This document shows, piece after piece, positions 1-780 of a stretch of 780 nucleotides of DNA. Below the pieces are notes generated by a model that ran no database searches, was not told the origin of the DNA, and saw only the letters and a list, made by a program, of their open reading frames with translations. Location: assembly GCF_003334355.1 (NCBI RefSeq), contig NZ_QOWP01000101.1, one strand, 5' to 3'. A program made the position numbers and the translations under genes. Positions within the stretch are counted from its first letter, which is position 1. Each line of letters opens with the position of its first letter. The stretch comes from Escherichia coli (GTDB lineage: Bacteria > Pseudomonadota > Gammaproteobacteria > Enterobacterales > Enterobacteriaceae).

Positions 1-328
1 CGGATATTGGCGCACCTCCGCAGCTACTGGCAAAATAGCCAGGACTCCACAAAACGCCTTTGTAGTAATACCTGACTGCAATATCTGGTCGATCTCGTCG
101 CAGTAACCTACCCGATACGCCTTTGAGGCTGTTTACCAGACTGGATATCGCCAGTTTGGGAGGATAGTTAATTAACAAATGGACGTGATCTGGTTCGCCA
201 TCCATTTCAACCAGTTCAGTTTCAAAATCAGCACATACATTTGAAAAGTAAGTGCGTAGTTTTTCTGTCGCGTCATAGTCAAAAATCTGACGTCGGTATC
301 TGGTGACAAAGACCAGATGAACATGCAT
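1..328 (-). CDS. tnpA: IS200/IS605-family Y1 (HUH) transposase TnpA; 3' end continues past position 1; alternative in-frame upstream start at ATG 391..389
   Basis: Minus-strand translation from ATG 328..326 is open to the window edge: MHVHLVFVTRYRRQIFDYDATEKLRTYFSNVCADFETELVEMDGEPDHVHLLINYPPKLAISSLVNSLKGVSGRLLRRDRPDIAVRYYYKGVLWSPGYFASSCGGAPIS. It shows the beta-1 motif HLVFVTRYRR (compare YHIVWCPKYRR in IS608/IS200 TnpA), the HUH motif DHVHLL (plus coords 179-187) and the catalytic Tyr context SPGYFASSCGGAP (Tyr codon at 37..35). The same frame stays open upstream to ATG 391..389 (adds MILWSVKKETDIRRGRHCVFL) and closes at TGA 445..443. Neither start has a strong Shine-Dalgarno (GGAAGG is about 16 nt upstream of ATG 328). 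Confidence 0.88.
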   Translation of the reverse strand, partial: MHVHLVFVTRYRRQIFDYDATEKLRTYFSNVCADFETELVEMDGEPDHVHLLINYPPKLAISSLVNSLKGVSGRLLRRDRPDIAVRYYYKGVLWSPGYFASSCGGAPIS

Positions 329-370
329 CAGGAAAACACAATGCCTTCCACGCCGGATATCGGTTTCTTT

Positions 371-404
371 TTTCACAGACCAAAGTATCATTTGGCCTGT
401 GAAA
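371..404. repeat. Imperfect inverted repeat / predicted stem-loop: 14-nt arms with one A/C mismatch and a 6-nt loop
   Basis: Left arm 371-384 TTTCACAGACCAAA, loop 385-390 GTATCA, right arm 391-404 TTTGGCCTGTGAAA. Thirteen of 14 positions pair; the single mismatch is 379 A against 396 C. It overlaps the tnpA alternative ATG (391..389) and the tnpB candidate GTG (399-401), and is preceded by a T-rich tract (363-373). Confidence 0.6.
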
Positions 405-509
405 CGACTACAGGCATTTAAATTCCAGTTAAGACCAGGTGGTCAACAGGAGCGTGAAATGAGGCGCATGTCGTTTCGTTTTCAATCGTGCTCTGGCGCT
501 TCAGAATGA
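399..509 (+). pseudogene. tnpB: Frame-0 ORF fragment carrying the conserved TnpB N-terminal motif, out of frame with the tnpB body; likely the original tnpB 5' end separated by a frameshift
   Basis: From GTG 399 in frame 0: VKRLQAFKFQLRPGGQQEREMRRMSFRFQSCSGASE, stop TGA 507-509. AFKFQLRP matches the TnpB N-terminal consensus KAYKFRLYPtkeQ. There is no ATG in this frame before 459. After residue M (459-461) the family-like sequence continues only in frame +1 (GACRFVFN from 463). Confidence 0.5.
448..452 (+). promoter_or_regulatory. Shine-Dalgarno-like AGGAG, 6 nt upstream of ATG 459-461
   Basis: AGGAG at 448-452, spacer CGTGAA, then ATG at 459. The ATG is in frame 0, which terminates at 507-509, so it yields only a 16-codon ORF unless the frame is corrected. 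The motif could also simply be coding sequence (QE) of the frame-0 N-terminal fragment. Confidence 0.3.
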
Positions 510-780
510 GAATCATGAGGCCGGTAATAAATACATCCCTTACGGGAAAATGGCTTCCTGGCTGGTTGAGTGGAAAAACGCCACTGAAACGCAATGGCTT
601 AAAGATTCTCCCTCACAGCCATTGCAACAGTCACTGAAAGACCTTGAGCGGGCTTACAAAAACTTCTTCCAGAATCGGGCTGCTTTTCCCCGATTCAAAA
701 AGCGGGGACAGAATGATGCATTCCGCTACCCGCAGGGCGTTAAGCTCGATCAGGAAAACAGCCGTATTTTTCTGCCGAAA
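463..780 (+). CDS. tnpB: TnpB/OrfB (IS605 OrfB family, RNA-guided nuclease family), N-terminal region only; continues past 780; 5' end frame-disrupted, so start is undefined and this may be a pseudogene
   Basis: Frame +1 translation 463-780 has no stops: GACRFVFNRALALQNENHEAGNKYIPYGKMASWLVEWKNATETQWLKDSPSQPLQQSLKDLERAYKNFFQNRAAFPRFKKRGQNDAFRYPQGVKLDQENSRIFLPK. It matches recalled TnpB N-terminal signatures: G-x-CRFVYN (here GACRFVFN), L-x-x-AYKNFF, FP+FKKK (here FPRFKKRG) and I-x-LPK. An in-frame TGA sits at 460-462 directly before the conserved Gly. The first canonical start in this frame is ATG 550-552. Confidence 0.8.

Follow-up and report, generated by a model that had tools for sequence, protein, structure and literature searches.

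Insertion sequences of the IS200/IS605 family carry their end signals as subterminal hairpins that are bound by TnpA, and the guide RNA of TnpB (omega RNA or reRNA) comes from the 3' end of tnpB together with the right end of the element. In IS609 of E. coli, a member of this family, the end signals are represented by CCCCGTCCTTCAGGGCGGGGA and a right-end counterpart, and known copies carry tnpA and tnpB in a divergent layout. Judged by title and abstract, the 15 papers listed out of 49 on IS609 are genome inventories and surveys mentioning the element, and these titles and abstracts hold nothing on motifs inside it. The 780-bp stretch of E. coli DNA that was analysed here as a whole (the window) covers the central part of IS609, both ends of which fall outside it. 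The window has the same divergent layout as the known copies, and both copies of a 12-nt direct repeat, ATCAGGAAAACA, lie at the same positions as in those copies. It differs from them by an 11-bp deletion that shifts the reading frame of tnpB, and otherwise no difference in kind was found.

The window matched 4,996 of 5,426 complete E. coli genomes, typically at two places per genome, and in 4,980 of the 5,426 it was 97-99.9% identical to annotated IS609 copies; about 10,500 IS609-like places were counted in total across the 5,426 genomes. At these matches, the RefSeq names are "IS200/IS605-like element IS609 family transposase" for tnpA and "RNA-guided endonuclease InsQ/TnpB family protein" for tnpB. 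The closest match, with 99.9% identity, is an IS609 of E. coli strain J3 that lies within a TetR-family gene, between yjfZ and ytfB. In J3, an IS1A is inserted between tnpA and tnpB of the same IS609 copy (L001, positions 3389-4086), and the window is without this IS1A.

The two proteins of the intact O157:H7 copy were assigned with profile models. TnpA scored 145.7 bits with NCBIfam NF033573 (transpos_IS200; cutoff 55) over residues 13-138, and TnpB scored 378.8 bits with NF040570 (guided_TnpB; cutoff 100). The tnpA product is an IS200-type Y1 HUH transposase, and its translation in the window has the HVHLL motif and the C-terminal YY-K region. The second gene belongs to TnpB, an RNA-guided endonuclease accessory protein, and is present in the window in a frameshifted form. 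Subterminal hairpins in the form of imperfect palindromes, without terminal inverted repeats, were found in the intact copy L002; this copy has an inverted repeat at 1908-1949 and a direct-repeat pair at 1919-1939 and 3621-3641, just beyond both genes. The 12-mer shows no sequence relationship to these end hairpins; it is located centrally in the element and forms no structure. The coordinates of the features are given in Table 1.

Table 1 Features of the 780-bp window.
Feature	Position	Strand	Remarks
tnpA (insP; IS200/IS605-family Y1 HUH transposase), 5' part	1-391	-	annotated ATG 391-389; extends beyond the window on the left
tnpB/insQ (RNA-guided endonuclease TnpB family), 5' part	399-780	+	starts with GTG 399; pseudogene here
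Copy 1 of ATCAGGAAAACA	327-338	+	inside the tnpA coding sequence
Copy 2 of ATCAGGAAAACA	749-760	+	inside tnpB/insQ
Palindrome TTTCACAGACCAAA / TTTGGCCTGTGAAA	371-404	.	14-nt arms, 6 nt apart; separate from the 12-mer repeat
Site of the 11-bp deletion relative to intact IS609	463-469	+	GAAATG[AGGCGCTTCGC]AGGCGCATG, bracketed AGGCGCTTCGC lost

The start codons of the two divergent genes, at 391 and 399, are separated by only 7 bp. GTG at 376-374 is an alternative start of tnpA and the counterpart of the ATG that is used by relatives. The sequence-only reading had placed copy 1 at the start codon region of tnpA, taking 328 as the start. This placement had to be corrected, since the start annotated in RefSeq is equivalent to 391, the minus-strand frame stays open upstream of 328, where it reads MILWSVKKETDIRRGRHCVFLMHV, and the alignment to the IS200 profile begins at residue 13. 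Accordingly, the ATG at 328-326 is an internal codon, Met22 of TnpA, and the gene starts at 391 or 376; in an E. coli copy with 95% identity, this Met22 codon is AAG.

When the residues of TnpA are numbered from the annotated ATG at 391, copy 1 reads on the minus strand as (TG)T GTT TTC CTG AT(G), that is, Cys18-Val19-Phe20-Leu21-Met22. Copy 2 reads on the plus strand as (G)AT CAG GAA AAC A(GC), corresponding to Asp121-Gln122-Glu123-Asn124-Ser125 of intact IS609 TnpB. The two copies thus belong to different genes, which are encoded on opposite strands, and their codon phases differ. The assignment of copy 2 to DQEN codons of tnpB in the sequence-only reading is correct for intact IS609, but in the window the gene is frameshifted and copy 2 is out of frame with its start.

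This frameshift is due to the 11-bp deletion listed in Table 1. The lost segment is flanked by two AGGCGC direct repeats, which is a signature of slippage. The tnpB frame that begins at 399 meets a stop codon at 507-509, and the homologous frame resumes at about 466; as a consequence of the deletion, copy 2 no longer shares a frame with the tnpB start. The same deletion explains why the 780-nt query gave matches of 791 nt. In the J3 copy, which is 99.9% identical, tnpB is annotated as "frameshifted". Hence, tnpB in the copy represented by the window is a pseudogene that was inactivated by a small slippage deletion.

The sequence search agreed with the sequence-only reading that the 12-mer occurs as an exact direct repeat. 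No third match to ATCAGGAAAACA was found on either strand of the window with up to two mismatches. The pair is the longest exact direct repeat of the window, and it cannot be extended by even one base on either side. When the 10-nt flanks of the two copies were compared, 4 of 10 positions were identical upstream and 2 of 10 downstream, indicating that the surroundings are dissimilar. A repeat search over the whole element returned ATCAGGAAAACA as a two-copy family unrelated to the end hairpins, and among the 24 loci retrieved the 12-mer was present only at the two homologous positions and nowhere else.

To estimate the chance level, the window was shuffled 5,000 times with its dinucleotide composition preserved; 1.4% of the shuffled windows had one or more exact direct repeats of 12 nt, and 6.1% had one of 11 nt. 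By our own arithmetic, the rate of 1.4% corresponds to about 80 windows of 780 bp with such a repeat per 4.6-Mb genome, and about 0.5 additional copies of ATCAGGAAAACA itself would be expected by chance in 4.6 Mb. The repeat is therefore mildly unusual when a single window is considered, where 1.4% lies below the conventional 5% level, and within chance for one window picked from a genome scan; its statistical significance is weak. In a scan of a genome, repeats of this kind are expected many times. Another shuffle figure, 0.20 for 12-mers that are either direct or inverted, was set aside because it was dominated by self-complementary 12-mers.

Diverged relatives of the element were found by a distant blastn search of plasmids and by a TnpA-based scan of viral contigs. 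The sample comprised four distinct full-length lineages with 75-78% nucleotide identity, and both sites could be read in three of them. In none of these three lineages were both copies retained together, and the copy that survived varied by lineage. In the Klebsiella plasmid L005, site 1 reads ATCATGAATACA and site 2 is the exact 12-mer; in the Arsenophonus plasmid L006, site 1 is the exact 12-mer and site 2 reads ATCAGGGAAAAA; and the viral contigs L013-L016 have ATCAGGAATACA and ATCAATCCAATA at sites 1 and 2, respectively. In the fourth lineage, L019, site 1 reads ATCAGGAAGGTG, and the contig terminates ahead of site 2. The sequence-only reading had proposed to check a shared motif by the conservation of both copies in related elements, and had named the absence of the motif from one site of a near-identical copy as evidence against it. 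The relatives with 75-78% identity in which both sites can be read retain at most one copy, and the 95%-identical E. coli copy L004 shows such an absence, with TTCAGGAAAACA at the site of copy 1. Copies of IS609 within E. coli are all at least 94% identical, so that agreement among them is little informative.

The way in which the sites change also bears on their meaning. A synonymous change of a Val codon from GTT to GTA destroys copy 1 in L013-L016, indicating that it is the protein that is constrained at this place, and not the nucleotide string. The variation at copy 2 extends to the amino acids, which differ among the relatives (DQGKS, DQSNS, DQESS, EQGNS, DQTSN, and DQTNN). When mismatches in the three distinct diverged relatives were counted for all 12-nt windows, site 2 was at the 44th percentile and site 1 at the 8th percentile. 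Site 1 is thus somewhat better conserved than average, which follows from its position within the conserved transposase core that it encodes. At neither site did nucleotide conservation go beyond what the protein requires, and in the diverged relatives the two copies were neither retained together nor found to vary together. Furthermore, in six tnpB-only relatives the left-end hairpin immediately precedes tnpB and site 1 has no counterpart, and the intact ones among them retain a full-length tnpB. As judged from these alignments, the pair of ATCAGGAAAACA copies is restricted to the IS609 lineage of E. coli.

We consider it very probable that the repeat is a chance identity between two independent coding stretches of IS609. 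Copy 1 encodes, on the minus strand, the residues Cys-Val-Phe-Leu-Met of the conserved N-terminal core of TnpA, and copy 2 encodes, on the plus strand, the residues Asp-Gln-Glu-Asn-Ser in a variable stretch of TnpB. Each copy would then occur in thousands of E. coli genomes through the recent common descent of IS609 and not through selection on the 12-mer. Coincidence was one of the two options left by the sequence-only reading, and it is supported by the dissimilar flanks, the shuffles, and the lack of co-conservation in relatives; we infer that the pair has no function. The other option, a shared regulatory or recombination motif, found no support, given that relatives with both sites readable keep one copy at most.

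Under a regulatory role, copy 1, either alone or jointly with copy 2, would bind a regulator or belong to the promoter or operator of the divergent tnpA and tnpB genes. Because the start codons are only 7 bp apart, the transcription signals of each gene necessarily lie inside the other gene, those of tnpB inside tnpA, and copy 1 is located 61-72 nt upstream of the tnpB start at a site whose conservation exceeds that of most 12-nt windows. This conservation is, however, accounted for by the TnpA core encoded there, and the site is broken by the synonymous change in L013-L016. Moreover, no equivalent sequence exists upstream of tnpB in the tnpB-only relatives, and copy 2 lies about 350 nt within tnpB, where it is unconserved. 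No sigma-70-like promoter was called in the window, and the consensus scan for promoters and terminators showed nothing promoter-like in the window and nothing at either 12-mer. When the complete sequence of the intact element was compared with Rfam at a permissive threshold, only two sub-threshold chance matches were obtained, neither of them close to the 12-mers, and the local RNA folds at the two copies were not stable. We therefore regard a regulatory role as very unlikely. A narrower form of it, in which copy 1 would belong to a tnpB control region that is specific to the IS609 lineage and lies within tnpA, and in which the same factor would bind copy 2 as a second site with low affinity, seems extremely improbable. 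What little weight we leave beyond chance falls mostly on copy 1 alone, within the transcription signals of tnpB, for which we found no positive evidence. A site for IHF was also considered; by-eye comparison with the consensus WATCAANNNNTTR gave no match.

RecA-independent deletions can be mediated by short direct repeats. Being direct and 422 bp apart, the two 12-mers would in principle be a substrate for recombination or slippage that deletes these 422 bp (433 bp in intact copies), and slippage does occur in this element, as the 11-bp deletion between the 6-bp AGGCGC repeats of the window copy demonstrates. Such a deletion, if it occurred, would inactivate the element, with the loss of both start codons. 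Nevertheless, the predicted junction was absent from the 5,426 complete E. coli genomes when they were searched with a 42-nt probe, which intact copies match over at most 27 nt and thus cannot seed with a megablast word; the sole hit was a 28-nt partial match in an ordinary tnpB. Unlike known repeats of slippage deletions, the 12-mers were thus not joined by deletion in any of these genomes, and a deletion between them would anyway be an accident and not a function. This largely refutes such a deletion as a recurrent event and makes a role as a recombination substrate exceedingly doubtful. The probability is close to nil that the repeat was left behind by a duplication or gene conversion inside the element, for which the exact identity over 12 nt is the sole argument: the similarity ends at these 12 nt, the copies encode parts of unrelated proteins from opposite strands, and each site diverges independently within its own gene among the relatives. 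With chance identity as the preferred reading, the present result removes a false lead, namely a coincidence inside a very well known insertion sequence of E. coli. More can be learned from the surroundings than from the repeat itself, in that the start codons lie 7 bp apart within one strong palindrome and the copy has been inactivated by slippage.

The palindrome covers the tnpA GTG at 376, the tnpA ATG at 391, and the tnpB GTG at 399. The RNA hairpins that it forms on the two strands have folding energies of -15.4 and -19.1 kcal/mol, with z values of -5.0 and -5.9, respectively, and the palindrome might occlude both gene starts. The relatives with 75-78% identity retain only its outer 6 bp, TTTCAT/ATGAAA, which correspond to the ATG AAA starts of the two genes, so that the palindrome in its extended form is specific to the IS609 lineage.

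The same relatives bear on the start of tnpA. In L005, L006, L013-L016, and L019, ATG is present at the equivalents of 376 (tnpA) and 399 (tnpB), where IS609 has GTG, and ATT is present at the equivalent of 391, where IS609 has the annotated tnpA ATG. Because of this ATT, the conserved start of tnpA is probably the one at 376. In addition, at the equivalent of 386-391, which is 7 nt ahead of the tnpB ATG, the relatives have a perfect TATAAT and IS609 has TATCAT. This arrangement hints at transcript leaders that may be very short or absent (leaderless or near-leaderless).

The tnpB-only relatives L007, L008, L009, L011, and L012, on plasmids of Salmonella, E. albertii, E. coli, and Klebsiella, share the left-end hairpin of IS609, GCGCCGTAAA.CCCCGTCCTTCAGGGCGGGGATATA.GGCGC, which lies at 1908-1949 in L002; in these relatives it is found at about 1420-1500, approximately 40 nt upstream of tnpB. 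Since this left-end hairpin is common to both kinds of element, IS609 looks like a tnpB-only element with an inverted tnpA inserted between its left end and tnpB, as far as the sequences indicate.

A further variant of the element was seen in L004, whose 95%-identical IS609-like copy lies at 2380-2670 beside ybcM. The tnpA annotated there is longer, with 540 nt, and tnpB breaks off after about 290 nt. Copies with a comparable truncation occur in other genomes (H27-H29), and the matches to them end at position 670 of the window.
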